Shown one piece after another: positions 12,709 through 43,756 of a stretch of 64,000 bases of DNA. The stretch spans positions 1-64,000 of IMG/VR virus record IMGVR_UViG_3300045146_000225. One strand, 5' to 3'. Under the pieces are notes generated by a model. It was not told the origin of the DNA. It saw only the letters and a list, made by a program, of their open reading frames with translations, and made no database searches. Each line of letters opens with the position of its first letter. Positions within the stretch are counted from its first letter, which is position 1. The position numbers and the translations under genes were made by a program. This DNA comes from a virus. Lineage: Duplodnaviria; Heunggongvirae; Uroviricota; Caudoviricetes.

Positions 12709-12783
12709 GTGGATCATATTGGAATCGAACCAATTACCTACTGATTATGAGTCAGCCGCTCTAACCGATTGAGCTAATGATCC
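12709..12783 (-). tRNA. tRNA-Met (anticodon CAT). It could be an elongator, an initiator, or an Ile2 lysidine-type tRNA.
   Basis: rc gives TGGATCA-TTAGCTCAATCGGTTAGAGC-GGCTGACTCATAATCAGTAGG-TAAT-TGGTTCGATTCCAAT-ATGATCCA. That is a 7-bp acceptor stem, D and T arms, a TTCGATT T-loop and a CAT anticodon. No CCA is encoded. Confidence 0.8.
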
Positions 12784-13602: not shown

Positions 13603-14805
13603 TCAAATGAAATTGGAAGAAATTACCGTATCGCCTGAGTGGTAATAAGGATGTTTCACCAAAAACATTTGTTTGTATTGGGAACCGTAAGTACCCAAAG
13701 CGAACCGAGCCAGTGAATTTGTCGCACCGACAGTATCGGCATCGCGTGAAACACCACACTTCACACAAACAAATTCTCCCTGACTTGCTCGGTTCGCCTT
13801 CTCCCTGTGGTTACAGTATGGGCATGTAATAGAATTACCATAAGCGGACACTCTCCGAAGAGAGACACCGTTCTCCTCGGTTAGCATTTGAATCCTGCTG
13901 TTTATTCTACCAATAGACCAACCAGTGAGAACAGACCGCATATTTTTACTCAGGCGACCTCTGAGTTTACTCTTGCTTTTTAGTTTACTCTTGCTTTTTA
14001 GTTTACTCTTGTTTTTGATTTTCCGGTTGTCCTCTAGGACAAGCAGCCGTAAAGTATCAAATGGAATCTGCTTTATGGAATGATCTATGTATTCAAGGAT
14101 CTCCTCTCTACACGCATGCCATGCTGTTGAATTTCGTTTCTTACGTTTCAGTTTTTGTAGCAGTGGCATCATTTTTGACCCGTAATGGTTTCCTTCATCG
14201 TCATTGATGACATGTACAGCACCAGGATCTACACCAATGATGTTTCCTTCCGTATTCTTTACTTTTTCACATTCAAATGAAAACTGGACATATTTATCGG
14301 TCAAGATAACCGATGCACACAGCGTCCCTTTAGATTTCCATTTGTTGAACATTTTGTTCTTTTTCAATGGAATTGCCACAGAAACTGCTCTCTCACGTGA
14401 ATCAAAACAACGCAAATCAACCAACAGATCGAATCCTTTCAGTTCTGGATTCAGTTGAATATTTACATTCGTACAGCTAAGTAGAATACGACTCGAATTA
14501 TGATGCGGTCGTGAATATGGCTTGTTCAATTCATCAGCACTGCGTTTGGTTCCAAGAACCAAAGCATGTGCTTCAGCGAATGCATTCTTCTTTGCTCTAG
14601 CGGTCAACCACGATTCGCATCTTGATAGGTTCTCTGCTAACAACAAAGATGGTTTCTTCATTCCATTCAATATATCAGATTCGTGATGCTCGATAGCCCA
14701 GGTCACAACTCTATGCATTTCAGATATGAATTCACGGATCGAAGTCAACTTCGATTCTGTTATCCACTTGCCGAAATGGCATTTTGATGATCTAATGTAT
14801 TTCAT
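13603..14805 (-). CDS. tnpB: IS200/IS605-family TnpB (OrfB) RNA-guided nuclease homolog, full length with an intact RuvC triad.
   Basis: IGVDPG (RuvC-I), LVLEDN (RuvC-II), zinc finger CPYCN...CVKCG, and DADTVGATN (RuvC-III). There is a KSKLKS x3 repeat (18-bp DNA repeat, 13967-14020). Confidence 0.85.
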   Translation of the reverse strand: MKYIRSSKCHFGKWITESKLTSIREFISEMHRVVTWAIEHHESDILNGMKKPSLLLAENLSRCESWLTARAKKNAFAEAHALVLGTKRSADELNKPYSRPHHNSSRILLSCTNVNIQLNPELKGFDLLVDLRCFDSRERAVSVAIPLKKNKMFNKWKSKGTLCASVILTDKYVQFSFECEKVKNTEGNIIGVDPGAVHVINDDEGNHYGSKMMPLLQKLKRKKRNSTAWHACREEILEYIDHSIKQIPFDTLRLLVLEDNRKIKNKSKLKSKSKLKSKSKLRGRLSKNMRSVLTGWSIGRINSRIQMLTEENGVSLRRVSAYGNSITCPYCNHREKANRASQGEFVCVKCGVSRDADTVGATNSLARFALGTYGSQYKQMFLVKHPYYHSGDTVISSNFI

Positions 14806-25157: not shown

Positions 25158-25397
25158 ATGAAAGATATTAAACAAATGGAAGTAGAAGAACTTCGTAAAG
25201 AAATGGATGACCTTTGGGGATACTTGTATATGACAAAGGAAACAGGAACGTATGATAAATTTGAATGGAACGGATTAGATTATTGGGATGCTGATAGACG
25301 ATATCACAAAATATCACAAGAAGTTATTCTACGAAGTTTATTAGAACACGCTCTTAGCAGAAGAGAAAATAAAATATCAAAAAGCAAATCAAGATGA
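25158..25397 (+). CDS. Small protein (79 aa), translationally coupled to the C5 methyltransferase by an ATGA overlap.
   Basis: ORF with AT-rich codon usage like the methyltransferase. Confidence 0.45.
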   Translation: MKDIKQMEVEELRKEMDDLWGYLYMTKETGTYDKFEWNGLDYWDADRRYHKISQEVILRSLLEHALSRRENKISKSKSR

Positions 25398-26425
25398 AGT
25401 ATAAATTTATAGACTTATTCGCAGGAATTGGAGGTTTTAGAATAGGCTTTGAAGAAGCAGGTTTTAAATGCGTATTCACATCAGAAATTAATCCTCATTG
25501 CCAACAAGTTTACGAAACAAACTTTGGAGAAAAACCATTTGGGGACATTACCAAAATCAATCCAGCAGATATTCCAGATTTTGATATTTTATTAGGAGGG
25601 TTTCCTTGTCAACCATTTAGCATTTCTGGTAAAAAAATGGGATTTGAAGACACAAGGGGAACTTTGTTTTTTGATATTTGCCAAATAATTGACAGCAAAC
25701 AACCCAAAGTTGTGGTTTTAGAAAATGTAAAACATTTAATACACCACGACAAAGGAAGAACTTTTACAGTTATTATAAAAGCTTTAATGGACTTAGGTTA
25801 CAATGTAGCGCATAAAATATTAAATGCTAAAGATTTCGGACTCCCTCAAAACAGAGAAAGAATTTTTATCATCGCAACAAAAAATCATTATTTTGATTTT
25901 GCTAAATTAAAAAAGAAAAAGAAAGTTATATTAAGAGATTTTTTAGACACTGAAGGCGATTTTGAATTTATAGACAAATCAGAATACACTTTAATTGACA
26001 TTCCTAAAAAACAAGAAAGTGGTCTTTTATTCGTAGGATACAGAAATAAAAACACTTGGAAAAATGGCATTAGGGAAAATACTGAACATCTTTCAAGGGT
26101 TCATCGGCAACCAAACAGAATTTATTCAATCGATGGAAATCATCCTACAATTCCCTCACAAGAAACAACAGGAAGATTTTTTATTTACATTCCAGAATTA
26201 GATGCAGTTAGGAAATTAACATTGAATGAATGTTATAAAATAATGGGCTTTAAGCCAAATTTTAAAAAACATTCAAATGTCGGGGAACAATATAAACAAA
26301 TTGGAAATTCTGTTGCTATTCCAGTGATAAGAGCCATTGCTGAAAGTATAAACGAACAAAAATTATTAATCGATGAATCACAAAGACAAATTGTTGGAGA
26401 TTTACAAACTCTCCTTTTCGCTTAA
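25394..26425 (+). CDS. DNA (cytosine-5) methyltransferase.
   Basis: Motif I FAGIGG, motif IV GFPCQPFS, motif VI ENV, and a C-terminal Q.GNSV motif. Confidence 0.9.
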   Translation: MKYKFIDLFAGIGGFRIGFEEAGFKCVFTSEINPHCQQVYETNFGEKPFGDITKINPADIPDFDILLGGFPCQPFSISGKKMGFEDTRGTLFFDICQIIDSKQPKVVVLENVKHLIHHDKGRTFTVIIKALMDLGYNVAHKILNAKDFGLPQNRERIFIIATKNHYFDFAKLKKKKKVILRDFLDTEGDFEFIDKSEYTLIDIPKKQESGLLFVGYRNKNTWKNGIRENTEHLSRVHRQPNRIYSIDGNHPTIPSQETTGRFFIYIPELDAVRKLTLNECYKIMGFKPNFKKHSNVGEQYKQIGNSVAIPVIRAIAESINEQKLLIDESQRQIVGDLQTLLFA

Positions 26426-26984: not shown

Positions 26985-27209
26985 TTAGAACTCATCCTCA
27001 AACAATTGACAATCTAGGTACATTGATAATACTTTTTGATTTGTAGTTAATCCATATTTACCTTTAAAACACAAAAAGGATCTATCCGAGTACAAATTAA
27101 CGTCCATTACCTTACAGTGTTTACATTTAATACAAGATGTACGAGTGTTAACATCACCTAATATACCATTATTGGTATCATTATCGTTTGATAGTTTATC
27201 GGTATTCAT
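26985..27209 (-). CDS. Small Cys-rich protein (74 aa).
   Basis: ORF with a CIKCKHC motif. Confidence 0.35.
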   Translation of the reverse strand: MNTDKLSNDNDTNNGILGDVNTRTSCIKCKHCKVMDVNLYSDRSFLCFKGKYGLTTNQKVLSMYLDCQLFEDEF

Positions 27210-27524
27210 ATTTTTATCACGTGTTTAAAGTTTATACCTAGTGTTGCCGTGATGATACCAGCATTCAATACCTCCGTTAAAATTACCAAAAGAAACATTT
27301 ACCGCTCCGATATGTTCCGATGGTTCTACTTTCCAATTTCCTCTCGTGTACATATTATTATGATTTAAAGATTAAACAATAAAAGAAGTGCTACACCTAC
27401 AGTTTATTCTTCGGAACACCCCTCTCGTATTCGGTGATGCCGATTATCACCAAGCCGTCAAGCAGCACAAAGGTAATGCTTTTTTTGTTTAAATAATCCA
27501 AATGCTCTGGCGTTTATTTCTAAA

Positions 27525-27740
27525 TTATTTCAAATCTTTCCTCTCGTCGCAGAGTTTCTGGACCAATTTTGCACTGTATGGACGCTTGTTACAGTTCCAG
27601 TTAATCTCCCGGTAAACCGTGCTCATGTCCGTCTCAACTATCTGAGCAATTTTATTTTTCGGTGTTCCTGTTTGGAGCAAAGCATCAATTTGATACCTTT
27701 GCTCTATGGTAGTCGATTTCCCCCGTTTCGTTATTTGCCA
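27525..27740 (-). pseudogene. IS30-family transposase N-terminal HTH fragment. It has no start codon and begins in frame directly after the ligA stop.
   Basis: TIEQRYQIDALLQTGTPKNKIAQIVETDMSTVYREINWNCNKRPYSAKL matches IS30 LSEREEIRAGL...IATALNRSPSTISREVQRNRGRRYYKA. Confidence 0.45.
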
Positions 27741-29809
<2,069 letters not shown>

Positions 29810-29830
29810 TTGTCTGTGTTCCATATTTAA

Positions 29831-29865
29831 CCTGAAAAATGAGTATTCAATAACTCATTTTCAGG
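29831..29865 (-). terminator. Near-perfect 14-bp hairpin after dam.
   Basis: cctgaaaaatgagt attcaata actcattttcagg. Confidence 0.5.
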
Positions 29866-29938
29866 TATCATTTTAACTGGAGTTCTCGGTGATGTTGTAA
29901 CGAATATTACTTTGCTGTCAATCCTTGCCATAATCTAT

Positions 29939-30847
29939 TTAAAATGCTAATTCCGTTTGAAATTCCAATTTTGGATATTTTTTGTTTGCCTCGTTTCCAT
30001 AATTTGAAATTAAAATGTGGCTTGCGGTAGATTTAAACCGATTCCTAATATTTACAGCATAGGATTTACCATATTCATCAACAATCAAATCATTATACAG
30101 TTTATCTGTTAACGGTGTCCTGCCAATTACCATTAATGCCTTACATTTAAGATTCAAAAAACTAATAGCTAATTCAGCATGGTGTTTTTCGTTAAAACCA
30201 TCTTTATACTCAGCATTTCCATAATCAGAGAAAACGCAATCATAAGGAGGGTCTAAAAACATAAAATCATCTTCGTTTGCCATTTCAAAAATATTCTTGT
30301 AATCCAAATTGTATATTTCTGTATTAGCAAGTAACTCACTGTGTGCTTTGGTTACCAAGGAAGTATTGAGGTTAGCATATCTGCCGTAAGGAACGTTAAA
30401 TTCACCTTTTGCATTATACCTAATCATGCCCGAATACGCAGTTTTATTGATAAAAAAGTACAAAAGAGCATCAGAATATTTCTTTTTTGTCAAATCGTTG
30501 AACATATCACGAATTTGGTAATACAAAGTCTCATTTTCGTCATCAACTCTTAAATCAGGTGTTTCTGCTTTTAACTCTTCAAACTTCCTTCGATTGATTA
30601 AGTATGTTTTCTCTATTTCCTGAAGCTCTTTACTAAGTATCTCAAAATCTGATTTAACTCCTTTGTAAAAAGCCATCAATCTCGAGTTAATGTCGTTTAT
30701 TATAGCATTTTTGGGCTCTAAATGAAAGTACAATGCCCCACCTCCAAAAAAGGGTTCAATATACCTTCCTGTGAAATTGGGAATGTGTTTTATTAAATTA
30801 GGTATTTCCTTCGATTTACCGCCCCTATATTTTACAAGTGGTTTCAT
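29939..30847 (-). CDS. dam: DNA adenine methyltransferase, Dam family (D12 class N6-A).
   Basis: N-terminal YRGGKSK...EPFFGGGALYF and motif IV FLDPPY. Confidence 0.85.
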   Translation of the reverse strand: MKPLVKYRGGKSKEIPNLIKHIPNFTGRYIEPFFGGGALYFHLEPKNAIINDINSRLMAFYKGVKSDFEILSKELQEIEKTYLINRRKFEELKAETPDLRVDDENETLYYQIRDMFNDLTKKKYSDALLYFFINKTAYSGMIRYNAKGEFNVPYGRYANLNTSLVTKAHSELLANTEIYNLDYKNIFEMANEDDFMFLDPPYDCVFSDYGNAEYKDGFNEKHHAELAISFLNLKCKALMVIGRTPLTDKLYNDLIVDEYGKSYAVNIRNRFKSTASHILISNYGNEANKKYPKLEFQTELAF

Positions 30848-30852
30848 ATATT

Positions 30853-31155
30853 TTACTTTTTAAATCCAGATTTATACTCAATCGCGCTTTCATGTACAAT
30901 GCCAAGTACCTTTTCTGCATTTTCCTCATCTTTCACAACTGAATAAATCTGTTCAGCTAGCCAAAGATTTAACAGTTGGATTTTGTCGGTTTCTAACAAA
31001 TCGACAAGAATTGAAACTTGTTCCCTTTTTGCACGTCTTTCTCCACGCTAAATTTTGCAATATGTAGCTGTATCTATCTCCAAAGCAGCAGCCAATTGTC
31101 TTTGATGCATTAGTTTTTGTTCCTTTAACTGTCTAATTCTATCAGCAAACAACAC
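30853..31155 (-). pseudogene. XRE/Cro-type HTH controller (C-protein-like) gene with an in-frame TAG at a conserved Glu position. Its stop is 5 nt upstream of the dam ATG.
   Basis: (GTG)LFADRIRQLKEQKLMHQRQLAAALEIDTATYCKI*RGERRAKREQVSILVDLLETDKIQLL... The TAG at 31048-31050 replaces the E of the canonical IsriErG motif. Confidence 0.5.
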
Positions 31156-31452
31156 GTTGTAAATTTTGTCTTAACATTATTTGGCAAATATAAATCTTAA
31201 TATTGGAAAAGTCAATTTTTTTCATACAGTAAATGCTAAATCATTGGCAGGTGGTCTTTTCTTCGGCTTGTTGGTAACGGTCGCTGCTATGAGCGGTGGC
31301 GGGCTTCGTGGCTGCTCCCGTATCCCACGTTACATACCTTACCTGCGAGACGAGACGTTGTTGTACGCTTGTCGTTATTGTTTTCTAATCTAATTATCTC
31401 ATTTTTAACACACTGTCTCCCAGTCCCAGCGATGGAGCGGGATGGACTTGAA

Positions 31453-31508
31453 GGCACATTTGGCATTTTTGGATCGAGGGCAAGCTCTGCGGGAATGCCA
31501 AATGTGCC
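31453..31508. other. Perfect 15-bp stem (ggcacatttggcatt / aatgccaaatgtgcc) inside a 300-bp GC-rich non-coding stretch.
   Basis: Read directly from the sequence. The flanking ORFs have no protein-like features. Confidence 0.4.
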
Positions 31509-31540
31509 TGAACGCGAAGGGATGGTGCACGTTAGCGAAA

Positions 31541-34500
31541 TCATTGTTCCATTACCTTTTTTACAAGTTTATCAATCTTTTCAAGTTCTTCCGCCAAATG
31601 TTTCTTTAAATCGACTCTTATTTTACCTAATACATGAGCAGTTAAATCACCATCTGGTGGATTTAAAATTATGTATTTAATTGTCTTCTCGTGACAAGTT
31701 TTCCCTAATGTGGCGAGTTCGATGTGAAATTCATCTTTGTCACTAAAGAGAGGAAAATAAACATCTAAGATTTTCTTATGAACGTCTCTTGCCCCAAATA
31801 ATCCTTTTGTTTGGAAGTCTTTCATAAGCAAGTTTGGAATAGATGAATTTAAAATGGATGATAAGTAATATGCTTCATTTTCATCATTTGTATAGCAAGC
31901 GTAGGCTTTGCTTTCATTAATAAAATCAAGGTCTATTTTTGTCCTATCAATTACAAGTGCATTAGCATCTTTTGCAGATGCATTATACAAAACACAAAAC
32001 CTTGCATTTAAATTTTGGTCAGTTAATTTGTTCAACCAGTTCAAATAATCTTCTGCGTTTATTTCACTGTTTTTTTCAGTTTTATTTATATCCCAAATTC
32101 GTTCAGCGTTTACAAACCATTTAGAAGCATTTAAAAATCCTTTATTCATTAAATCTTCAGATGTGTGTAAATGGATTTTTTTTTGCTCGTCACTACTTAA
32201 TTCGACGGTTATCGGTAGAGTGACAAAATCAGGTTTATATAGTAGGAATGGGAGAATTGATTTAGAAATTGCCGTTCGATAGATAAATCTACTTTCAATT
32301 TTACCGGAAAAATCTAATCCTTTCCAAGGAGCTTTTGCATCTGCTTTTATTGAATCTGCCGTTTTTATATTAATAATTCTGTCATTGAAATCATCGGGCA
32401 TTTCCTGATTTAAATCGACAAAATAAAATGCTCTCGGGACAATAGTCGCACCTTGTTTGAAACGGTTCTTATATGGATTCACATTTTCCTGTGAACTAGA
32501 TTTCCTGGTCGAAAATGCTGTTGAGTTTCCTTGCTTTGCATAATACCATGTGACAGTAGATTCAGTTAATTTATTTTTGGCAATATCATAATGACAGTTA
32601 TGAGCCGGTAATCTGCCTGAAAACTGTTTTCCTTCTAAACCGGTTGCCTTTATTTTTCTATCGGCATGTGCCTTTTCAGAGATAAGTACACAACTTGGGA
32701 TTCTGAACAAAGGAGTAACATCTGTTAAATCCCAAATATCTATTAAACGAAATCCTTTGGCGACACCACTTCTTGAATTATCATGATGGTCGGCACTAAA
32801 AAATGCCCTTGGTAAAACAAATGCAATTTTACCTTGGTCTTTTAGAAAATAACTACTGCAATATGACTGAAAAATTGCAGCAATTTCTAAGTGCGGATAA
32901 TTAGCTGCTTTTTTCGGTTTAACATCATATTTGATTGCAAGTTTATCAAGAATGTTTTGATAATCTTCATTTTTTATGGAACTATAAGTAAACCAAGGTG
33001 GGTTTCCAATTATGTAATCAAATTTATTTGCTAAGAAATATGGTTTGTACATGTTAGAAATAATGAATTTCCAGATACTATCACTACCTTTTTCTTTAAC
33101 CTTTTTAAACCCCTGATAAATTTTGTAAAAACTATCGACTAATTGAGGCGTCAAACCACTTGTATGTTGATTTAAAATATTTTCGAAAACTGAATTTTCG
33201 ATATTTTTTTTATCCATTGTCTGTTCCGAAAGTTCCTCGCAGACATCCAGCACGGTATCAAATACTTCACCATTTTCTAATACCTGTGCATTTATCATGT
33301 ACTTATCTTTATCGATGTGCATAATAAATTCACCTCCGAATAAATCCCCAATACATTCTGTAGCAAGTAAGGTATTTGCAAGTATTACATTTAGGTGAAC
33401 AGGTTTTCTTGCTTTTGAAATGGTATTACCTAGAGCAAGAAGCAATGTTGTTTTTGCAATTTGAACTGACAAAGGATGAATATCTATACCATAAACTTGA
33501 TCGTTAATTTCTTCAGGTGTAATTTCTTTATTTGTTTCTCTAATTCGGTGAATTATAGCTCGAAGAAATGAGCCACTTCCACATGAAGGGTCAAGAATTT
33601 TGTCTGTTTTTGTAAATTCAAACTCGTTAACTATTCTTTCACAAAGCCAATCGGGAGTATAGTATTCACCGAGAGAATGACGTGTATCTAAATCAATTAA
33701 TTCCTGATAAACACCTTTGAGAATATCTTCATTAACATTGGTAAAATCAAAGGCTGAAATCTCTTGAGCTATTAATCGAAATACTTTTTTAAGCTTTGGA
33801 TAATCGCGGTCCCCGTTTACCCAATGAAAAAAATCATTGTCGACAAAGTTGGAAATATTGTAAGTATGGAAAATGCTACCGTCCAAAACTTTCCGCATTT
33901 CATCATCATCGATATAATCATCATTTGATACAACAGCATATGCAATCATTTTAGAAAATACGCTCAAATACGTATGGATTAAAAAGATATCTTCACGAGC
34001 ATCAAATGAACCGTATGCGATACTAAGAAACTTATGCCATTGTTCATACGAAACTTGAATTACTCCATATTTTTTAGCTTCGTTAAACCAATTATTCAGT
34101 TCTCGAAAAGATTCAATAAAAACTGGACTTTGATATCCAAAAGCTTCTTCTATACTTTTTAAAGTCGCTTTTTGTTTTTCTTCTTTGAATAAAAACCTGT
34201 CAAGCCAATAGTAAAACTCTTCTGAATTGGTTTCATTTAGTACAAAAGATGCACTTTCTACCTCATTCAGGATTAGTTCATGTCCCAATAAAGAATCCAG
34301 TTTATCCAAACAACTAACATCTGGTGCAACGACTTTCCAATTGATAAAGTCCGATGCAATCAATGTGAAATTATACCCGACACCAGATTTGAATTGTCCA
34401 AGTAAATAGCATGCTAATTGTTCTTTGGCATGATTATATGTTGCTTTTAAATCATTCTCAAATTCTATGATAATGGTATTGAACAAAGTATCAGCACTGC

Positions 34501-34705
34501 CACGATGTAACTTGTCCTCACGGGGGATGTTAACTATTGTAGCTTCAGCACCAAGTGTAATTTTATCAATTATTTTTTGAATTTCCTTGTCAGAGGAATA
34601 AAGCCCATTCAATAAATCTTTAAACGCTTCTTTTTTAGTCAATTCATTATTTGAGGCTTTAACCTTTTGATAATATTGTCGAATAAGCTCTTTTTTATCT
34701 ATCAT
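31541..34705 (-). CDS. Type IIL (MmeI-like) restriction-modification fusion protein. It has an N-terminal PD-(D/E)xK nuclease, a gamma-class N6-adenine methyltransferase and a C-terminal target-recognition region.
   Basis: N-terminal GSADTLFNTIIIEFENDLK, motif I DPSCGSGSFL, motif IV GNPPW. Length 1054 aa. Confidence 0.75.
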   Translation of the reverse strand: MIDKKELIRQYYQKVKASNNELTKKEAFKDLLNGLYSSDKEIQKIIDKITLGAEATIVNIPREDKLHRGSADTLFNTIIIEFENDLKATYNHAKEQLACYLLGQFKSGVGYNFTLIASDFINWKVVAPDVSCLDKLDSLLGHELILNEVESASFVLNETNSEEFYYWLDRFLFKEEKQKATLKSIEEAFGYQSPVFIESFRELNNWFNEAKKYGVIQVSYEQWHKFLSIAYGSFDAREDIFLIHTYLSVFSKMIAYAVVSNDDYIDDDEMRKVLDGSIFHTYNISNFVDNDFFHWVNGDRDYPKLKKVFRLIAQEISAFDFTNVNEDILKGVYQELIDLDTRHSLGEYYTPDWLCERIVNEFEFTKTDKILDPSCGSGSFLRAIIHRIRETNKEITPEEINDQVYGIDIHPLSVQIAKTTLLLALGNTISKARKPVHLNVILANTLLATECIGDLFGGEFIMHIDKDKYMINAQVLENGEVFDTVLDVCEELSEQTMDKKNIENSVFENILNQHTSGLTPQLVDSFYKIYQGFKKVKEKGSDSIWKFIISNMYKPYFLANKFDYIIGNPPWFTYSSIKNEDYQNILDKLAIKYDVKPKKAANYPHLEIAAIFQSYCSSYFLKDQGKIAFVLPRAFFSADHHDNSRSGVAKGFRLIDIWDLTDVTPLFRIPSCVLISEKAHADRKIKATGLEGKQFSGRLPAHNCHYDIAKNKLTESTVTWYYAKQGNSTAFSTRKSSSQENVNPYKNRFKQGATIVPRAFYFVDLNQEMPDDFNDRIINIKTADSIKADAKAPWKGLDFSGKIESRFIYRTAISKSILPFLLYKPDFVTLPITVELSSDEQKKIHLHTSEDLMNKGFLNASKWFVNAERIWDINKTEKNSEINAEDYLNWLNKLTDQNLNARFCVLYNASAKDANALVIDRTKIDLDFINESKAYACYTNDENEAYYLSSILNSSIPNLLMKDFQTKGLFGARDVHKKILDVYFPLFSDKDEFHIELATLGKTCHEKTIKYIILNPPDGDLTAHVLGKIRVDLKKHLAEELEKIDKLVKKVMEQ

Positions 34706-34898
34706 AAATTATTAAAATTAGTTTTTCAAATGTAAAGAATTCATCTCAATAATCCGGGTGAGCGTTGGCATTTTCTTTTTTTGTCTTTTAATCAGTCGTT
34801 AATTATCTGCTGTGTCTGTTTTTTCGGCTTGCGTACAACAATAACAAATATACCATGTTAATATTGTGACTTTTTAATTAAGTTAACGTATAATATGG

Positions 34899-34906
34899 TA
34901 TATTTG
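34899..34906 (+). promoter_or_regulatory. TATATTTG box, the second copy of the duplicated promoter cassette.
   Basis: See 25108. Confidence 0.55.
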
Positions 34907-34928
34907 TTGTTATAAATATGTATTATTT

Positions 34929-35189
34929 TTGTTTTACCTTTTAAAAATAAATATTATGAATTACGAAGAACTGAGAAAAGAGAAGTGGATGAGGGAAAAT
35001 TCACCAAAATCACAATTACTTGGTAATAATTTTTTACCGATGAATCCAGAAGTAGGTTTTTTCATAACAGTAGAGGGACTACAAATATCACAAGACTTCT
35101 TTAAAGAAGAATATGAACAAATAAGTAAATCATATTATTCTGTTATGAAAAAACTGGATGAATATTATAAAAACTCAAAACAAAAATAA
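34929..35189 (+). CDS. Hypothetical small protein. The true start is probably the ATG at 34957.
   Basis: ORF downstream of the promoter box. Confidence 0.4.
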   Translation: MFYLLKINIMNYEELRKEKWMRENSPKSQLLGNNFLPMNPEVGFFITVEGLQISQDFFKEEYEQISKSYYSVMKKLDEYYKNSKQK

Positions 35190-35359
35190 TATTACGTATA
35201 ACGGCTGGCAATAAGGCAAGTGGCTGATTACGGACTACGAACCTATCAATTTGCACTGCCGTTTGAGCGGGTTAGGTACTTTAAATAACCACAGAACCCG
35301 CCATTTGCTTTATTGCGTGTTATGGTTTCGGTTTTTATTATCAATCTAAAAATATTAAA

Positions 35360-35635
35360 ATGACAACAGAAGAATTTGCAATTAAACAAGCCGAAATGAG
35401 TAATGAAGAACTCATTAAACTGGCAGATAAACAGGTTTCAGAACTTGCTAAAACTGGTGGTAGGAGTCATAAAATGTCAGTTCCTCCACAAATTACCGAT
35501 ACTGATATGATTTTTTGTGAACTTATCAAACGGTTTGAAAAATTAATATCTAATCCAATTTGTCAAAACTGCGGAAAATATAAAACAATACAAGGCAATG
35601 GTATTATGTACCAACTTTGTGAGTGCGGTTCTTAA
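35360..35635 (+). CDS. Small protein with a C-terminal zinc ribbon (CQNCG...CECG).
   Basis: ORF. Confidence 0.45.
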   Translation: MTTEEFAIKQAEMSNEELIKLADKQVSELAKTGGRSHKMSVPPQITDTDMIFCELIKRFEKLISNPICQNCGKYKTIQGNGIMYQLCECGS

Positions 35636-36166
35636 ACTGAACCATAACGGTTGGCGGTATGCGCCGTAGGGGATTTCGGAGCTGCGTCTGTATCACCCGT
35701 TACGAACCTTGATGCGAGCTGAAACGCTTGATATACCACTAAAACCCCTATGGCGTATGACCGCTTGTTACCTGCTGGGCTTTATTTTTTTCATCTTTCA
35801 ATGTTTGCCAATCTCACTGTCAGCGTAGGCTTGCATGCTCTTTTGCAATTTTTGGTCAAGCGTTGGCTCGTGTGGCTTGCAAATGTGCTGCAATGTGGGT
35901 TGGTTATTCATTCTTGTTTTTCTGTCATTTTTTTTAGCAAATTGTCCGCTGAGTCGTTTTCTAACCTTGCTGCCAACTTACTTATATGCGTACCTGAAGA
36001 AACAGGTGAAGTCAGACCTGACTCTGTACGAAATCCAGCAAATTTTAAGCGTCTCAATTTTTTTTTTCAAAAACACCTATAAATGAACTACTTAACCAAG
36101 TAAAAATCGAAAATAAAAGAACATACAGTTGTAATCAGTTGAATTTGTTTGACTTATAACGCAATG

Positions 36167-36571
36167 CTAGTGATTTACAATAGTAAAAGCTATGAGCAAT
36201 CCAATTCCAGCAACTAAGGTACCAATCATAAATTCATTAAACCACGTAATCCAGTCACTGTCTTTTACTGTAAAATCATTATTCTCAACTTTTTTAATAC
36301 GTTTCATAATCAACCGAGCTGAGATATAATGTGCTAAAAATCCTATCAAGATTGTAAGACCAAAAAGGATCAGAGCGATATAATATAACCACAAAAGTTT
36401 AGCCTCTTTGATAGGAACAATATCTTTCAAAAAAGTTAAACTAATTGCAAGAGCACCGCTACTCAGATATAAAGCTTGAGAATCAAATTTTTCAATACTA
36501 TATCTAAAATCAGTGTATAAATCTGCAATGTATTTATTCTTAATTTCTTTTAGTTCTTCTTCTGGTGTCAT
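36167..36571 (-). CDS. Membrane protein with 3-4 transmembrane segments (134 aa). It is flanked by 20-bp direct repeats at 35975 and 36604.
   Basis: Hydrophobic segments. AT-rich codon usage. Confidence 0.5.
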   Translation of the reverse strand: MTPEEELKEIKNKYIADLYTDFRYSIEKFDSQALYLSSGALAISLTFLKDIVPIKEAKLLWLYYIALILFGLTILIGFLAHYISARLIMKRIKKVENNDFTVKDSDWITWFNEFMIGTLVAGIGLLIAFTIVNH

Positions 36572-36755
36572 AATATCTGGTTTCGTTATTTATGCTTGTA
36601 CCTAACTTACTTATATGCTTACCAAAGGTGCGAATTTACTACATATGTTTGTTGTATATGCGTACTTTTTTGTTGCCAAATATAGCACAAATATATGTTT
36701 TTTTTAAATATCATCGAATGGGGATTTGATTTTTTTTTGCAATTCTTTGTTACGA

Positions 36756-36823
36756 CAGAAGGTGAATGGGATGGCACAAGAGCATACGGTGAAACGCTGT
36801 TGGCTGGTAGAAAAACACTTGAA
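36756..36823 (+). repeat. 68-bp identical duplicate of an internal segment of gene 37772-38350 (the other copy is at 37937-38004).
   Basis: cagaaggtgaatgggatggcacaagagcatacggtgaaacgctgttggctggtagaaaaacacttgaa at both sites. Confidence 0.85.
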
Positions 36824-36871
36824 GGTAGATTCAAGCTTCAAATGCAACTTTAGTAAGTGCAAATTTATAAT

Positions 36872-37024
36872 TTAAAAATTCAATGTACGAAGAAAATTTA
36901 TGTTTTTTTTTCGCGGTAGCGTATTAAGTTTATCCTTAACACGCTTAATATCCTCATCAGTAATATTTTCAAAAGATGATTTCTTGGGAAAATACTGCCG
37001 AATCAAGCCATTCACATTCTCATT
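36872..37024 (-). pseudogene. IS30-family transposase C-terminal fragment. An IS-end-like sequence extends to 36823.
   Basis: NENVNGLIRQYFPKK...LNTLPRKKNINF matches the IS30 C-terminus NENTNGLIRQYFPKK...LNNRPRKTLKF. The adjacent sequence ggtagattcaagcttcaaatgcaactttag matches 22 of 30 positions of the 225-bp element terminus. Confidence 0.55.
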
Positions 37025-37238
37025 TTAGCTGAGCTTCTCAGTCTTGGATTTCCCTGCTTGTACTAAACAAGAAATTTGATACCTTTGTTGTTCGGTTATA
37101 TGAGCAAAAGTGCAACTTGTCTTGGGAGACTTAGGGGGGTAATTTAGCAAATAGATGGTGAGAAATTACCCCTTTGTTTTGAAAAATATTTGATTTTTAT
37201 TACCATTCCCAAAGTTGCATTTACTACTTGAATCTAAG
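37022..37238 (+). repeat. About 225-bp repeat element, copy 2.
   Basis: See 16123-16359. Confidence 0.7.
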
Positions 37239-37771
37239 ATTTCTTTACCTATGGTTTCTAATAATACTTTGGCGTTTTCTAATGAGTGGCTAAAATCAGA
37301 TTCAATATGCGTTTCTATTCTGCCAATGTAAATTGACAGTTCAACCCAACGACCATATTGCTCTATTGTTTTTTTAACTTATTCATTAAATTTCTATACT
37401 AACATCACCATTCAATATTTTTGGCTACAAATTGTTTTTTATGGTTTTGAGTGTTGATATTTGACCGAGGTTAAAAATTACCTTATCATATAACTCACCA
37501 ATTTGAATAGAGTATTCCTTTATTTCTTCTTCACTTAAAATTGAAAACCCGCAATAGAATATGATGACAAATGTTCTTAATGCTATTTGTCATTGTAGAG
37601 AAAATAATTTGTTCGAATAAACTGAAGAAAAATTATGCGTTTGTAGAGATGGCAATCAGGTTTGGTGTGTATTTGATAGAGATAAAGAAGAAACTGAATT
37701 CATATACAGCCAATCAGCAACACACAAATGGTTATCTAACCGCAACATAAATAAAATAAAACACACAGTAC

Positions 37772-38350
37772 ATGCGGCTAATAGAAACAACAATATTGGA
37801 ATACATCAACCCAATTAAAAAAACAGACGTGTTTTACCACGGATCAACAGACAAAAACATGAGCGGTAAGAACGGCATACATGTCGGAACTAAATTAGCA
37901 GCAACACAAGCACTACAAGCAAGGATAGGTGTTCCGGCAGAAGGTGAATGGGATGGCACAAGAGCATACGGTGAAACGCTGTTGGCTGGTAGAAAAACAC
38001 TTGAACTTAAAAACACGGAGTTAGGATACAACTGCACTACCGGATATAATTGCGGGAAAGATTTACCAGAAGAAGATTATTATCCCACACAAAGAGAATA
38101 TAGAGCGTCATTCTCAGATGGAACCCCCATTCCGTTCAATTGCAAACCAATCGTGTTCCCTGTTAAAATCACAGGACAAATGACAAACACGCAATCTTAC
38201 CCCCACACCGACGACAAAGCAAACTCCATGATGAAAAGGAACTTAAAAATGGGCAACGCTAAAAGTGGTTACTACTACACCAATATAGCGCAGGATTCCG
38301 GCTCGATATCTGCGGTAGTCCCAGACAAGTCATTCCTCGAAATACTGTAA
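37772..38350 (+). CDS. Hypothetical protein (192 aa).
   Basis: ORF. A terminator hairpin follows. Confidence 0.5.
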   Translation: MRLIETTILEYINPIKKTDVFYHGSTDKNMSGKNGIHVGTKLAATQALQARIGVPAEGEWDGTRAYGETLLAGRKTLELKNTELGYNCTTGYNCGKDLPEEDYYPTQREYRASFSDGTPIPFNCKPIVFPVKITGQMTNTQSYPHTDDKANSMMKRNLKMGNAKSGYYYTNIAQDSGSISAVVPDKSFLEIL

Positions 38351-38362
38351 CAGCAAACAAAA

Positions 38363-38398
38363 AACTCTGGTTGTACCTTAACAACCAGAGTTTTTTTT
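38363..38398. terminator. Bidirectional rho-independent terminator between 37772-38350 (+) and nrdJ (-).
   Basis: aactctggttg taccttaa caaccagagtt, followed by a T-run and preceded by an A-run. Confidence 0.65.
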
Positions 38399-38411
38399 GT
38401 TTAAACCATAA

Positions 38412-40928
38412 CTAGCTACCACACTTTGGGATACCGCAGTCCTTGCACAACAAGCAACCCTCCTGATAAATCAAGTTGGTGCTGCCGCAGTTATCGCACT
38501 TGTGCTTCTTGCCAGCCACCGTACCGTTCTTTATGTACGACTTCAAAGCCTTGACAACACCGAACTTCCACGTGGATATAGAATCGGAATCGAAGTGCAT
38601 GGACCAGACAAGGTCAACGACATCGGCAACAGGCATACCGTGCCTCAAAACACCAGAAATCAATCTGGCATAGTTCCAGTACACGCTGTCGAAAATCCTC
38701 GATATACCGTCTAACGTTGTCTTGTACCCCTGCTTGTCGGTGTACGTGAAATCATACCTTGACGTACCGTCTTCGAGCTTGACCTTTGTGATGACACCGT
38801 GCTTCACCGATGTCGGGATGTTCATGGTATCCTCGTCTATCTTACCGGTGAACACCTCGTACGGGTTGCCATCCTTGATACCGACGAACGCTATCCACTT
38901 CTCCTTGTTGTTGTTGAACCTGACGATATCGGCATCTAAAAACTTACCCCTCTTGATGACACTAACCTCGGTCTTCTTGGGTGTTTTATCCGAAATCAAC
39001 ACGCCGTCACGCGACCCCGCGCGGTATATGGTTATACCCTTGCACCCGTACTTCCAGCCAGCCTCGTATATGCTAGACACCGTCTCGACCGTTGTTTCCT
39101 CGGGAACGTTAACCGTGACGCTTATGGAGTGGTCGATATGCTTCTGTACCATACCCTGCATCTTTACCTTCGATGTCCAATCAACGTCAGCACTAGTCGC
39201 CTTGTAATATGGTGAGCCAGCAACAATAGCATCGAGTTCCTCCACAGACAACGAGTTTATCTTGTCCTCCGTGTAACCCTTTATCTTCATGTAATCCACG
39301 AACTTGTGGTGGAACACGTAGTACTCGCTGAACGCGTCACCAGTTGAATCCACGAAATCAACTCTCGTGCTCTTGTCGTTGGGGTTGATCTTGCGCCTGC
39401 GCTTGTAGTAAGGCAAGAAGCAAGGCTCGATACCCGATGATGTCTGTGTCATCAAGCTCAACGTCCCGGTAGGCGCACACGTCAACAAGCATATGTTCCT
39501 GCGACCGTACTTGACCATATCATTGTACAACCCCTCGTCCTCCTCGCGTATACGGGCGATGAACGGGTTGTTCTCCTCGCGCTTGGGGTCGTAAATCTTG
39601 AAACTACCCCTGTCCTTAGCCATATCAACTGAAGACCTGTAAGCCTCCAGCTTCATAACCCTGTGTATCTCCTCGGAGAAGTCGTTGGCTTCATCAGAAC
39701 CGTAGCGCAAGCCAAGAGCGGCAAGCATATCACCCTCGGCTGTTATACCGAATCCACTCCTGCGGATATTCGTGCATTTACCACGGATACCAACCCACAG
39801 CGAACGCTCGCATTCCTTCACTTGATTGCTCTCGGGGTCAGAATCTATCTTGGCTATGATCCTGTCAACCTTCTCCAGCTCCAAAGTTATGAGGTTATCG
39901 ATGAAACGCTGGCCCTTGAAGCAATGCTCCTTGAACAAGGACCAGTTGAACGTTGCCATATCGGTGAACGGGTCGTTAACATACGAGTAAAGGTTGATTG
40001 ACATCAGGATGCAACTAGAACCACCATCGAGAGGTATCTCGCCGCAAGGGTTGGTAGATATAGTCTTGTGACCGAGGTCGGCGTAGCAATCAGACACCGA
40101 TTCACGTATGATGGTATCCCAGAAAAGTATACCGGGTTCAGCCGACTTCCAAGCGTTGTACACTATCTTAGCCCACAGCTTGGACGCGTCTATATCCTTG
40201 ACAACAGACGGCGCGTCTGAATCAACAGGGAACTGCTGCGTGTACTTGTAGCCGTACAACGCCGCATTCATGAAATCATCGTCTATCTTAACCGATATGT
40301 TCGCACCGGTAACCTTGCCGTCAACCAGCTTGGCGTTTATGAAGTTCTCTGCTTCGGGGTGGCGGATACTTAGGCTCAACATCAAGGCGCCGCGCCTGCC
40401 ATCCTGCGCAACCTCTCTGGTCGTGTTACTGTACCTCTCCATGAACGGGACTATACCTGTCGATGTCAACGCGCTGTTCTTTACAGGCGAACCCTTCGGG
40501 CGTATGTGGCTCAAGTCAGTACCAACACCACCCCTGCGCTTCTGCAACTGCGCTATCATCTCGTCGACACGGAATATACCGCCGTAAGAATCAGACTTAC
40601 CCTCGTTACAAACCACGTAGCAGTTGGCGAGAGAAGTCACCTGCATATCGTTACCGATACCGGTCATACCACCACCACCGAAAACGAGGTACTTGAAGTT
40701 GGCGAGCAAAGCGTAGCACTCGTCAAGACCGATAGGGTTAGGGAACATGCTCTCCACGCGTGCCATTTCCCTGGCTATACGCCAATGCATGTCGTCCGGT
40801 GATTTCTCGTACAGATTACCATCGGAATCTTTCATGCAATACTTGTTTATCCATACGTCAGCGGCGAGAGTGTCATTGTTAAAATACGCGAGAGTCTCGC
40901 GCAATACTTCCTCGTGAGTGTAACTCAT
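38412..40928 (-). CDS. nrdJ: Ribonucleotide reductase, class II (adenosylcobalamin-dependent, NrdJ-like), monomeric type.
   Basis: No ATP-cone and no adjacent small subunit. Active-site NPCGEIPL. Gly-rich FGGGGMTGIG. C-terminal CDNCGS...CLLCKDCG Cys pairs. Confidence 0.7.
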   Translation of the reverse strand: MSYTHEEVLRETLAYFNNDTLAADVWINKYCMKDSDGNLYEKSPDDMHWRIAREMARVESMFPNPIGLDECYALLANFKYLVFGGGGMTGIGNDMQVTSLANCYVVCNEGKSDSYGGIFRVDEMIAQLQKRRGGVGTDLSHIRPKGSPVKNSALTSTGIVPFMERYSNTTREVAQDGRRGALMLSLSIRHPEAENFINAKLVDGKVTGANISVKIDDDFMNAALYGYKYTQQFPVDSDAPSVVKDIDASKLWAKIVYNAWKSAEPGILFWDTIIRESVSDCYADLGHKTISTNPCGEIPLDGGSSCILMSINLYSYVNDPFTDMATFNWSLFKEHCFKGQRFIDNLITLELEKVDRIIAKIDSDPESNQVKECERSLWVGIRGKCTNIRRSGFGITAEGDMLAALGLRYGSDEANDFSEEIHRVMKLEAYRSSVDMAKDRGSFKIYDPKREENNPFIARIREEDEGLYNDMVKYGRRNICLLTCAPTGTLSLMTQTSSGIEPCFLPYYKRRRKINPNDKSTRVDFVDSTGDAFSEYYVFHHKFVDYMKIKGYTEDKINSLSVEELDAIVAGSPYYKATSADVDWTSKVKMQGMVQKHIDHSISVTVNVPEETTVETVSSIYEAGWKYGCKGITIYRAGSRDGVLISDKTPKKTEVSVIKRGKFLDADIVRFNNNKEKWIAFVGIKDGNPYEVFTGKIDEDTMNIPTSVKHGVITKVKLEDGTSRYDFTYTDKQGYKTTLDGISRIFDSVYWNYARLISGVLRHGMPVADVVDLVWSMHFDSDSISTWKFGVVKALKSYIKNGTVAGKKHKCDNCGSTNLIYQEGCLLCKDCGIPKCGS

Positions 40929-41032: not shown

Positions 41033-41314
41033 TTACTTGACCTCTTCAGCCGGCAGGTTTACCTTCACGCGAGACACTATCATCAGGTAGTCCAACTGCG
41101 TCTTCTTGTTGAAATAATTGTTGATTAAATCGTTGACCGAATTGAAGTCAACGGTACCGTTCTTGAACTCCTCTATCTTTTTATCCATTTCCACTTTCGA
41201 CGACTCGGTCTCTGAACGCAAACGCTCTATGTCGGCATCTACCGTCTCTGGATTGTACTGGATGTCCGATTTGAAATCCTCTAAAAGCATATCCGATAAC
41301 GAAGGAACACGCAT
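41033..41314 (-). CDS. Hypothetical protein (93 aa).
   Basis: ORF. Confidence 0.4.
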   Translation of the reverse strand: MRVPSLSDMLLEDFKSDIQYNPETVDADIERLRSETESSKVEMDKKIEEFKNGTVDFNSVNDLINNYFNKKTQLDYLMIVSRVKVNLPAEEVK

Positions 41315-41383
41315 GGTGATTTGTATTTTAATTATTTATTCGAGTCGTGTGTATTGTGTACTGAAAGCACATACATGAACTAC

Positions 41384-41602
41384 TTATATACAAGTTGGAG
41401 AAACATTTTTTTCACAATTTATACACCAAGAAATTGATATTGTCACATCACATGCCATTATTCCAACATACACATTTCTTTCTGGTGATATTTGTACTTT
41501 ATCAAAGTTATTTTCATCTGTATCTGTTAAAATATATTTTAAACCACAACCCATACATAACAAAGTAGCAACACCATCGTGTTTTTCTAATAAGTTTTCC
41601 AT
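41384..41602 (-). CDS. Small Cys-rich protein (72 aa).
   Basis: ORF. CMGCG...CINCEK. Confidence 0.4.
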   Translation of the reverse strand: MENLLEKHDGVATLLCMGCGLKYILTDTDENNFDKVQISPERNVYVGIMACDVTISISWCINCEKNVSPTCI

Positions 41603-41673
41603 ATTTTTAAAGTTTACTTTATTAATACCAGCAACAACACCAAACCAATATCAAATGAAAACGACAACGAAAT

Positions 41674-41961
41674 TTACCAACAATTCACGAAACGAATTTT
41701 ATGCACATCATCAGGTATTTCGGAAACAATGATTTCATATACATCTGCATAATCTTCTGTGTATTTACTATACGGCACAGCAACCTCTATTTTTTCATAC
41801 AGTAAACACTTATCAACATATTTACTACCAAAATATTCTGCCGTTTCTTTTGGTAGTTCTGAAACACCAGCCTCAATACACGCAATTAAAACTTTCGAAT
41901 GTTTCTTGTATTTTATATCTTCGGATGAAACATAACCTTGGATTCTCGTTAACATTCCCAT
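41674..41961 (-). CDS. Hypothetical protein (95 aa).
   Basis: ORF. Confidence 0.4.
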   Translation of the reverse strand: MGMLTRIQGYVSSEDIKYKKHSKVLIACIEAGVSELPKETAEYFGSKYVDKCLLYEKIEVAVPYSKYTEDYADVYEIIVSEIPDDVHKIRFVNCW

Positions 41962-42013
41962 TTTATTATAGTTTTTTAAATTAATAATTACAAATATATG
42001 AACATATTAAACA

Positions 42014-42808: not shown

Positions 42809-43756
42809 TTAATTTGAAACGTGACTATCCACGAGCGACTTGAAAATGTGTGCTATTACATCGACAGTCCATCCGTTTCCAAGCATATTGTATCTTTCGG
42901 TATCCGTAACAACTCCAGTATAATTATCTGGCACAGTCTGTAATCTTTCAACTTCAACCGGTGTTAATCTTCTGTAATAACCAAGAACATCGAATATTTC
43001 AACTAACGCTTTTGGATAAAAATTCTTACCGGTGCTGTGTGCTAATTCAGTAGTTAATGTAGGTACTTTACCGGTCGCTTTATAACTTTTAGGTAAAAAC
43101 TTCATTAATGTTTCAACTCTTTCATCTTTAATGTTGTATTTAACATCCACGACTGGCTCTAATATATCTTTTAGCGTAACATTGGTTTTAGTTGGTTTAA
43201 CAACATTGGGTATATTTGTCCAATAATATCTCGGTCTATTCTGTGCTGTAATATCACCACTGCAAATGAACACAGGTTCAAGACCAATAGCATCACTCAA
43301 TACCTTTTTCCATTTATCGCTCATTTTAACGTTTTCCAATAAGAAATATCTTGGCTTTAAAATAGTCAAAGCATACATATATTCCCAAAACAAGTAGGAT
43401 TGCCCTTGAAATTCAAAACCATTATTCTTCAGCGATAGATAATGCTCCAATGTCAATATCTCAACATTATCTTTTGTCGTCATGCCATTTCGTTTACCAG
43501 CGAATGAAAAGGATTGACACGGACTCCCTCCGATTAATAAATCAATCTTGGGTAAATTATCGTAATTGATGTTCTTCACATCACCAAGCTGTATCGTTTT
43601 AGGATAATTGGATTGTGTTACCTTCATCGCTGGTTTGTTAATCTCACTCGCAAAATAGTTTTCGTATTCGATACCAACTCGATTAAGAGCTATTTGACCA
43701 CACGATTGCCCGTCAAACAAACTAAGCACATTCGTTATTTTTTCCATATTATACAA
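42809..43756 (-). CDS. DNA (cytosine-5) methyltransferase, the second one in the window.
   Basis: Motif I LFDGQSCG, motif IV GGSPCQSFSFAGKR, motif VI LLENV. Confidence 0.85.
   Translation of the reverse strand: MYNMEKITNVLSLFDGQSCGQIALNRVGIEYENYFASEINKPAMKVTQSNYPKTIQLGDVKNINYDNLPKIDLLIGGSPCQSFSFAGKRNGMTTKDNVEILTLEHYLSLKNNGFEFQGQSYLFWEYMYALTILKPRYFLLENVKMSDKWKKVLSDAIGLEPVFICSGDITAQNRPRYYWTNIPNVVKPTKTNVTLKDILEPVVDVKYNIKDERVETLMKFLPKSYKATGKVPTLTTELAHSTGKNFYPKALVEIFDVLGYYRRLTPVEVERLQTVPDNYTGVVTDTERYNMLGNGWTVDVIAHIFKSLVDSHVSN

Follow-up and report, generated by a model that had tools for sequence, protein, structure and literature searches.

An in-frame TAG in a phage-borne helix-turn-helix gene is best explained as a nonsense mutation in the regulator of a decaying restriction-modification cassette

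Introduction

Phages use orphan methyltransferases for self-protection, and the decay of restriction-modification (RM) systems to solitary methylases is well known, as is the carriage of such methylases by phages. In the crAss-like and Lak phages of Bacteroidota, TAG is read as an amino acid.

Where RM systems have a C protein, its gene and its binding sites follow described patterns. In PvuII, as reported in PMC2175313, the C gene and the endonuclease gene are cotranscribed. Sorokin et al. 2009 (PMC2632904) set out the pattern usual for C proteins, in which a double C-box of 35 bp precedes the promoter, and the same source gives a non-palindromic 'motif 9' for the Bacteroidetes homologues of C.

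Here we analyse a stretch of 64,000 nucleotides from a virus of the Caudoviricetes (IMG/VR record IMGVR_UViG_3300045146_000225, positions 1 to 64,000), which we call the window. An earlier note, made from the sequence without database searches, had drawn attention to a small helix-turn-helix (HTH) gene upstream of dam that carries a TAG in frame. It offered two alternatives: a freshly pseudogenised regulator, whose loss would leave dam or the restriction gene deregulated, or a gene that is read through by suppression of the stop. We put the probability at roughly 90% that the TAG arose as a plain nonsense mutation, now fixed, in the regulator of a decaying Type II RM cassette that a Bacteroidota phage acquired from bacteria.

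Results

PHROG and Pfam searches identify the window as phage DNA, with matches to the proteins of the tail sheath and tail fibre, a late sigma factor, a RuvC-like resolvase, a helicase, an SSB, thymidylate synthase, ribonucleotide reductase and an NAD-dependent ligase. Its G+C content is a mosaic: core genes stand at about 0.47 (long conserved genes range over about 0.45-0.49), and accessory islands, made up of small or acquired genes, drop to about 0.33, as at 14-17 kb, 24-27 kb, 30-38 kb and 42-47 kb. The HTH-dam cassette sits in a low-GC island that runs from about 29.8 to 38.3 kb. Elsewhere, the thymidylate synthase gene (54631-55818, plus strand) has an HNH endonuclease-like insert at residues ~138-225 of 395, which suggests a homing-endonuclease or intein-like insertion. 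A 400-aa ORF at 13603-14805 (minus strand) matches the phage-borne transposase families phrog_506 and phrog_12300, so that the phage may harbour a mobile element there. Two large minus-strand ORFs, 3046-9003 (1985 aa) and 9017-12595 (1192 aa), match PHROGs of unknown function only (phrog_31887, phrog_29329). DNA methyltransferase genes are also found at 25394-26425 (plus strand, with a match to the Pfam C5 DNA_methylase family) and at 42809-43756 (minus strand, with matches to methyltransferase PHROGs and C5-type PADLOC models); counting dam and a 1054-aa enzyme described below, there are at least four methyltransferase domains in the 64 kb.

The HTH gene occupies 30853..31155 on the minus strand and, apart from the premature stop, spells a protein of 100 aa. 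From its translation and Pfam matches we annotate it as a pseudogene of an XRE/controller-type HTH regulator. The minus-strand translation of 30853-31155 reads VLFADRIRQLKEQKLMHQRQLAAALEIDTATYCKI up to the TAG and continues with RGERRAKREQVSILVDLL, to end in KSGFKK and a second stop; in full, the product of 31155..30853 is VLFADRIRQLKEQKLMHQRQLAAALEIDTATYCKI, stop, RGERRAKREQVSILVDLLETDKIQLLNLWLAEQIYSVVKDEENAEKVLGIVHESAIEYKSGFKK, stop. When Glu is restored at the premature stop, the protein matches Pfam HTH_31 (E 6.5e-9, 36.4 bits against a cut-off of 27) and HTH_3 (E 3e-6, 27.6 bits against a cut-off of 23), and the identification as an XRE HTH protein, first made in the earlier note, is correct.

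The premature TAG is codon 36 (31048..31050, minus strand) and takes the place of an invariant GAG (Glu36). A database search returned 1233 homologues of the HTH protein, the closest of which are 100 aa long and 90-93% identical. Among the matches listed, residue 36 is Glu in 120 of 120 homologues. At the DNA level, codon 36 is GAG in all nine of the closest relatives examined (AAAATTGAGCGTGGA, versus AAAATTTAGCGTGGA in the window), and the stop is therefore one G>T transversion away from them. The earlier note had thus rightly placed the TAG at the conserved Glu of the HTH and rightly derived it from GAG in one step.

We next considered the product in structural terms, using an AlphaFold model made for an intact homologue of 93% identity (pLDDT 95.2). 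Of the six helices in the model, H29-36 is the recognition helix, which ends with residue 36. The window copy has no intact ORF for this helical bundle, as the stop falls after helix 3 of 6. The 35-residue product would lack helices 4-6 and be unable to form the six-helix fold, so no regulator is made, and the window copy is a pseudogene of the XRE family rather than a functional member. The start codon is GTG in the window and ATG in the relatives. The TAG aside, the ORF is interrupted neither by a further stop nor by an indel. Its own stop codon is followed after 5 nt by the ATG of dam, with the same 5-nt spacing in the nearest bacterial relatives, which confirms the tight coupling of the two genes that had been noticed before.

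The window and the bacterial cassette are homologous, at about 92% nucleotide identity, only across 29795..31279 (minus strand), as delimited by blastn against the relatives L001-L007 and by boundary alignments. The left (5') boundary (GTTACCAACAAGCCGAAGAAAAGAC...) is the point at which bacterial copies in unrelated contexts start to resemble each other, and the phage therefore holds the natural 5' end of the cassette. The right (3') end is truncated.

Within these limits, dam (29939..30847, minus strand) is intact and encodes a Dam-family (D12 class) N6-adenine DNA methyltransferase of 302 aa. The assignment comes from Pfam (MethyltransfD12, PF02086, E 1.2e-40), NCBIfam (TIGR00571, 203.6 bits against a cut-off of 114.85) and PADLOC (MTase_II, E 1e-75). 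The protein is 93-94% identical in amino acid sequence to its counterparts in the bacterial cassettes and keeps both catalytic motif I (FxGxG, within EPFFGGGALYF) and motif IV (DPPY, within FLDPPYD). It is the product of the sole surviving gene of the phage cassette. In one assembly of the same phage, L107 (JGI 3300045016), a deletion of about 30 bp at window positions ~30106-30135 cuts Dam to 237 aa; dam may be dispensable in part of the population, or the contig may be mis-assembled.

Downstream of dam, alignment with relatives identified a remnant of about 47 codons of an AlwI-family restriction endonuclease gene (29795..29931, minus strand). The stump runs for 34 codons before CAA>TAA at codon 35 and a 1-nt insertion (window MARIDSKVIFVTTSPRTPVKMIPENELLNTHFSG and stop, versus MARIDSKVIFVTTSPRTPAKMIPEIELLNTHFSGQKWNTDTQ... 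in the 559-aa proteins of relatives, which match Pfam RE_AlwI), and homology stops at about codon 47, 26 nt before ligA. The deregulated restriction gene that the earlier note had envisaged does not exist in this cassette, since the cognate gene is reduced to this stump with a nonsense codon of its own.

A second viral contig carries a cassette of the same type (L022:5447-7610, IMGVR_UViG_3300045902_000325). There a transposase-like remnant adjoins the HTH gene, which a 5' truncation has cut to 47 aa; the AlwI-family gene is broken up, and an intact Dam of 304 aa (82% identical) is encoded. L022 has arrived at the end state of the window cassette independently.

On the other side of the cassette, a GC-rich spacer (31280-31540) separates its left end from a gene for a 1054-aa protein (31541-34705, minus strand). 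In some pipelines the spacer is given an 85-aa ORF, and a perfect hairpin, about 15 bp long, lies within it at 31453-31508; a search of 31280-31540 for structured RNA gave no Rfam match at E <= 1 and an unremarkable folding z-score of -1.37. The 1054-aa protein has Eco57I, N6_Mtase and MmeI_Mtase domains and a Type IIG restriction enzyme-methyltransferase as its best PADLOC match (E 3e-68), and is a possible single-chain RM enzyme in the phage. This Eco57I/MmeI-like gene lies outside the cassette: nucleotide homology stops at 31279, and in those bacterial relatives that were examined the cassette is not preceded by this gene.

To place the phage cassette in its family, we turned to bacterial genomes. 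A scan of one genome per species recovered 383 relatives of the HTH protein, nearly all of them in Bacteroidota, and operon layouts were counted for the best 80 of the 383, in Bacteroidota genomes. The bacterial HTH proteins are 100-103 aa long. Of these 80, 53 have an ATGA overlap between the HTH gene and its downstream neighbour, and in 6 the two genes are separated by 5 nt. Of the 76 downstream neighbours scanned in bacteria, 74 encode a DNA methyltransferase (64 D12, 9 C5 and 1 N6_N4), and the third gene encodes a restriction endonuclease in at least 63 of 69 (54 AlwI, 6 NgoBV and 3 HaeII). In the closest homologues the order is HTH (100 aa), a 5-nt gap, a D12 methyltransferase (302 aa) and an RE_AlwI endonuclease (559 aa). 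The three-gene unit recurs in differing chromosomal contexts, including the complete chromosome of Gaoshiqia hydrogeniformans Z1-71.

Because the HTH family is paired with varied sets of methyltransferase and endonuclease, we regard it as an RM-associated regulator, for which 'controller-type' is a fair description by context. The family is one of small HTH proteins in Type II RM clusters; in the window, only the methyltransferase of the cluster is left. The term had been used in the earlier note, and the RM operon context supports it, while the link to controller proteins by sequence and structure is weak (see Discussion).

The cassette has a promoter of Bacteroidota type at 31185..31215 (minus strand), recognised from its sequence, its match to TANNTTTG and its conservation in relatives. 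It consists of a predicted -33 box, TTGAC (31215..31211, minus strand), and a predicted -7 box, TATATTTG (31192..31185, minus strand). The -7 box was identified by its fit to TAnnTTTG, the consensus of Bacteroidota promoters at -7, and in close relatives TTGAC stands about 20 nt upstream of it. The upstream regions of 69 unique relatives have in common the motif TATATTTGCCAAATAATGTCAAGAC(A/T)AA, which ends 6-17 nt 5' of the start codon and is flanked by variable sequence; its first eight bases correspond to the -7 box. The bases that follow the -7 box are at least 90% conserved at nearly every position, across taxa and enzyme types, and TATATTTGCCAAATAATGTCAAGAC precedes the HTH family across Bacteroidota (L025-L104) whichever methylase or endonuclease follows. 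Judging by this conservation, the motif is probably a -7 promoter box together with an operator, and we infer that the conserved bases 3' of the -7 box are the operator of the regulator. A description of TATATTTGCCAAATAATGTCAAGAC was not found in the literature compared, where motif 9 of PMC2632904 is given as a figure logo only.

In the window the putative operator, defined by its conservation in 69 unique upstream sequences, reads TTGCCAAATAATGTTAAGAC (31168..31187, minus strand), the phage variant of TTGCCAAATAATGTCAAGAC. It shares 31185..31187 with the 3' end of the -7 box and extends over the likely start of transcription. The difference is a C>T change: the window has T at 31173, and all 69 unique relatives have C. 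There is one copy of the motif per cassette in the window and in the Gaoshiqia locus, and no second copy was found near the methyltransferase or endonuclease genes of either. Most probably, the HTH protein binds this 20-bp site and autoregulates the operon, and the position of the site, directly 3' of the -7 box and across the likely start, suggests autorepression. No internal dam promoter was seen, in that TAnnTTTG does not occur on the minus strand from 30848 to 31184, so that transcripts of dam most likely start at the cassette promoter and run through the pseudogene, or else read in from the gene upstream.

The TAG is not the only change in the phage copy of the regulator. On the window branch the protein has acquired M1V, R11K, Q15L, P17H, E36 to stop, A51V, D59I, D85G and V91A. 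Several of these fall on conserved residues: residue 11 is R in 111 of 112 homologues and K, as in the window, in none; residue 17 is P in 116 of 118 and H in 1 of 118; and V51 and A91 are each found in no homologue. The window branch of the HTH gene carries 9 synonymous and 10 non-synonymous changes, versus 16 and 5 on the bacterial HTH branches, and the window branch of dam carries 23 and 13, with a low dN/dS. The non-synonymous excess in the HTH gene is not significant (Fisher p = 0.10 against the bacterial HTH branches and p = 0.26 against dam); as a trend, it suggests relaxed constraint on the HTH gene and purifying selection on dam. As the frame is open apart from the TAG, inactivation of the HTH gene may be recent.

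The following course of events would account for these observations. In the bacterial cassette, one promoter would drive the HTH gene, the methyltransferase (usually Dam-family D12) and the endonuclease (usually AlwI-family). In the phage, the restriction gene has shrunk by deletion to a 47-codon stump; the regulator has ceased to function, with translation ending behind the recognition helix, the start codon weakened and substitutions at positions that the family conserves at 94-100%; and the putative operator has been mutated at an invariant base. The methylase would then probably be transcribed without regulation from the old cassette promoter, through the pseudogene, and, as a solitary phage enzyme, probably pre-methylate phage DNA against a matching host endonuclease. 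With the endonuclease gone, the regulator is without its main purpose, which is to balance endonuclease against methylase. Its loss would be either neutral decay in the wake of the vanished restriction gene or an advantage, should it relieve repression of the methylase. Between the two alternatives offered at the outset, the TAG, the further lesions in the phage copy and the context of the cassette family all speak for a pseudogenised regulator.

A stronger version of this account holds that the TAG and the operator C>T change were positively selected, in that the loss of an autorepressor would render the protective methylase constitutive and strongly expressed; the stop would then be a functional change in regulation rather than neutral decay. 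It would refine the main explanation without contradicting it, and we consider it possible, if rather doubtful. Two separate hits have fallen on the inferred circuit, one on the regulator and one on an invariant base of its putative site, and that site lies directly 3' of the -7 box and across the likely start, which is a typical position for repression. Moreover, dam is intact with a low dN/dS, and L022 has lost its regulator too and kept dam. However, once the regulator was dead an operator hit would bring no gain, and neutral drift fits equally well; the regulator may be a repressor or an activator; and dam itself is disrupted in one variant (L107).

We also asked whether the TAG might be decoded, by a suppressor tRNA or an alternative code, to give a full-length regulator, perhaps only during a single stage of infection. 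On either side of the TAG the frame is open, with no stop or indel in the rest of the ORF, and TAG is the rarest stop in the window: 45 greedily chosen ORFs end in TAA (32), TGA (9) or TAG (4). However, the four ORFs that end in TAG include the ribonucleotide reductase gene and the 1985-aa gene, and gene spacing after them and the other two is normal. When TAG, TGA and TAA were each read through in turn, stop-to-stop ORF coverage of the window rose less with TAG than with the TGA control. Split-ORF candidates are no commoner for TAG than for TGA (9 versus 12), all the TAG ones are short, and the HTH gene is the sole candidate with recognisable homology. One long TGA candidate, at 41118-41981 (plus strand), was rejected as the antisense of a row of small minus-strand genes. 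The tail sheath, tail fibre, ligase, helicase, ThyA and methylase genes are all free of in-frame TAG, and the remark in the earlier note that no other gene needs TAG read-through stands, with no conserved gene carrying an in-frame TAG.

Searches with ARAGORN and Rfam found no tRNA with a CUA anticodon in the 64-kb window, where the sole tRNA is a tRNA-Met (12709-12783); this was the search for a suppressor tRNA that the earlier note had proposed, carried out within the window. The evidence as a whole covers the 64-kb window of the phage genome, and there the features of TAG-reassigned phages (many in-frame TAGs, longer ORFs and a tRNA(CUA)) are missing. In addition, the HTH protein is otherwise damaged, the putative operator is mutated and the cognate restriction gene is gone, which would leave a read-through product with little to regulate. 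We consider read-through or recoding very improbable, and the suppression suggested earlier finds no support, given that TAG ends real genes, that reading through it brings no gain and that the window has no tRNA(CUA). The same low probability attaches to a narrower form of the idea, in which a suppressor tRNA from outside the window or from the host would yield a conditional regulator, acting as a single-gene translational switch on the methylase operon with the standard code elsewhere.

The comparison with relatives leads back to a plain nonsense mutation. Bacterial relatives carry GAG at codon 36 and show no signs of suppression, which is the outcome that the earlier note had associated with a simple nonsense pseudogene. 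No related phage with an intact HTH gene was found. An exact-pattern scan around the TAG and a LigA scan, both of viral contigs, gave no match, nor did megablast of 27000-38500 against the GenBank phage collection or two pattern scans of metagenome contigs. The phage lineage was reached only through exact-protein look-ups, and all the copies found in this way have the TAG.

At least ten assemblies (JGI, ENA and Logan) contain the TAG-bearing sequence at 100% identity, over stretches of 1.8-5.1 kb. The phage assemblies are nearly clonal, with 0-2 substitutions over 5 kb and the one deletion of about 30 bp in L107, so they are not independent evolutionary events and give no independent support for selection. 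Gene callers applied to the other assemblies give a 48-aa C-terminal fragment, not the 100-aa gene. In one assembly, L010 (ENA ERZ27250193), GGA>TGA at window position 28397 splits the NAD-dependent ligase gene into 457 + 217 aa. A sequencing or assembly artefact, with GAG in the true phage, is the least probable explanation of all: the few single-base differences between phage assemblies belong without exception to the G>T or C>A class, like GAG>TAG itself, and such changes can arise from oxidative damage in library preparation, but the TAG is present in every one of the at least ten assemblies, from differing pipelines (JGI, ENA/MEGAHIT and Logan) and runs, in which the 48-aa fragment was called independently.

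Discussion

Altogether, the window offers a clean snapshot of an RM cassette that was captured by a phage and stripped to a solitary methylase. The event is of a known kind, to which the window adds a new example, and its significance taken alone is small. The order of decay would be the restriction gene first or alongside, followed by the regulator and its binding site. The cassette relatives also name a likely donor lineage (Gaoshiqia, Lentimicrobiaceae and other Bacteroidota), which gives a host range for an otherwise unplaced phage. A by-product of the analysis is the delineation of a widespread Bacteroidota regulator family, with its operon layout and an almost invariant 20-bp promoter-proximal site, which makes the family an easy target for work on RM regulation outside Proteobacteria.

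How does the locus compare with phages that recode TAG? It resembles the crAss-like and Lak phages in having a Bacteroidota host, as judged from the relatives of the cassette and the promoter type, and in having an in-frame TAG in a recognisable gene. Unlike in those phages, there is no genome-wide signal in the window, where TAG terminates genes and no suppressor tRNA is found, and no structural or replication gene of the window has an in-frame TAG.

In function, the nearest counterparts of the family are the C proteins of Type II RM systems (for example C.AhdI, C.BclI, C.PvuII and C.Esp1396I), which share with it a small XRE HTH protein that heads an RM operon and a conserved site at its own promoter. 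In a Foldseek search of the PDB with the HTH model, C.AhdI (1y7y) was the top structural match (30% identity over 59 columns, rmsd 1.6 A, E 5.7e-3), and C.BclI and C.EcoT38IS were also among the matches; the match to C.AhdI is no better than those to generic phage repressors such as P22 c2, 434 and DdrO. The PADLOC Control_protein model matches the window protein weakly (E 3.2e-6, residues 2-41), and a sequence profile search of the PDB with the HTH protein found no C protein. In length, too, the family differs from C proteins: the chains of C.AhdI and C.BclI have 69-77 residues, whereas the members of the HTH family have 100-103 aa, with two extra C-terminal helices.

There are also differences in operon layout and in the binding site. 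Unlike the PvuII arrangement reported in PMC2175313, the HTH gene of this family lies directly upstream of the methyltransferase, to which it is translationally coupled, and the endonuclease is third. In place of double C-boxes, the family has one site of about 20 bp with weak dyad symmetry (TTGnCA-N5-TGnCAA), directly 3' of the -7 box, when set against the motif classes presented in PMC2632904. In travelling with different pairs of methyltransferase and endonuclease, it behaves as a modular RM regulator.

What the phage has kept is most like the solitary ('orphan') methyltransferases that derive from degraded RM systems. As in those cases, the methyltransferase is intact and the cognate endonuclease has been deleted or fragmented, and the phage carries other methyltransferases as well. 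Unlike the usual orphan methyltransferases, it retains the intermediates of decay, namely an endonuclease stump, a nonsense-mutated regulator and a mutated putative operator, and its donor cassette is known, at about 92% nucleotide identity.
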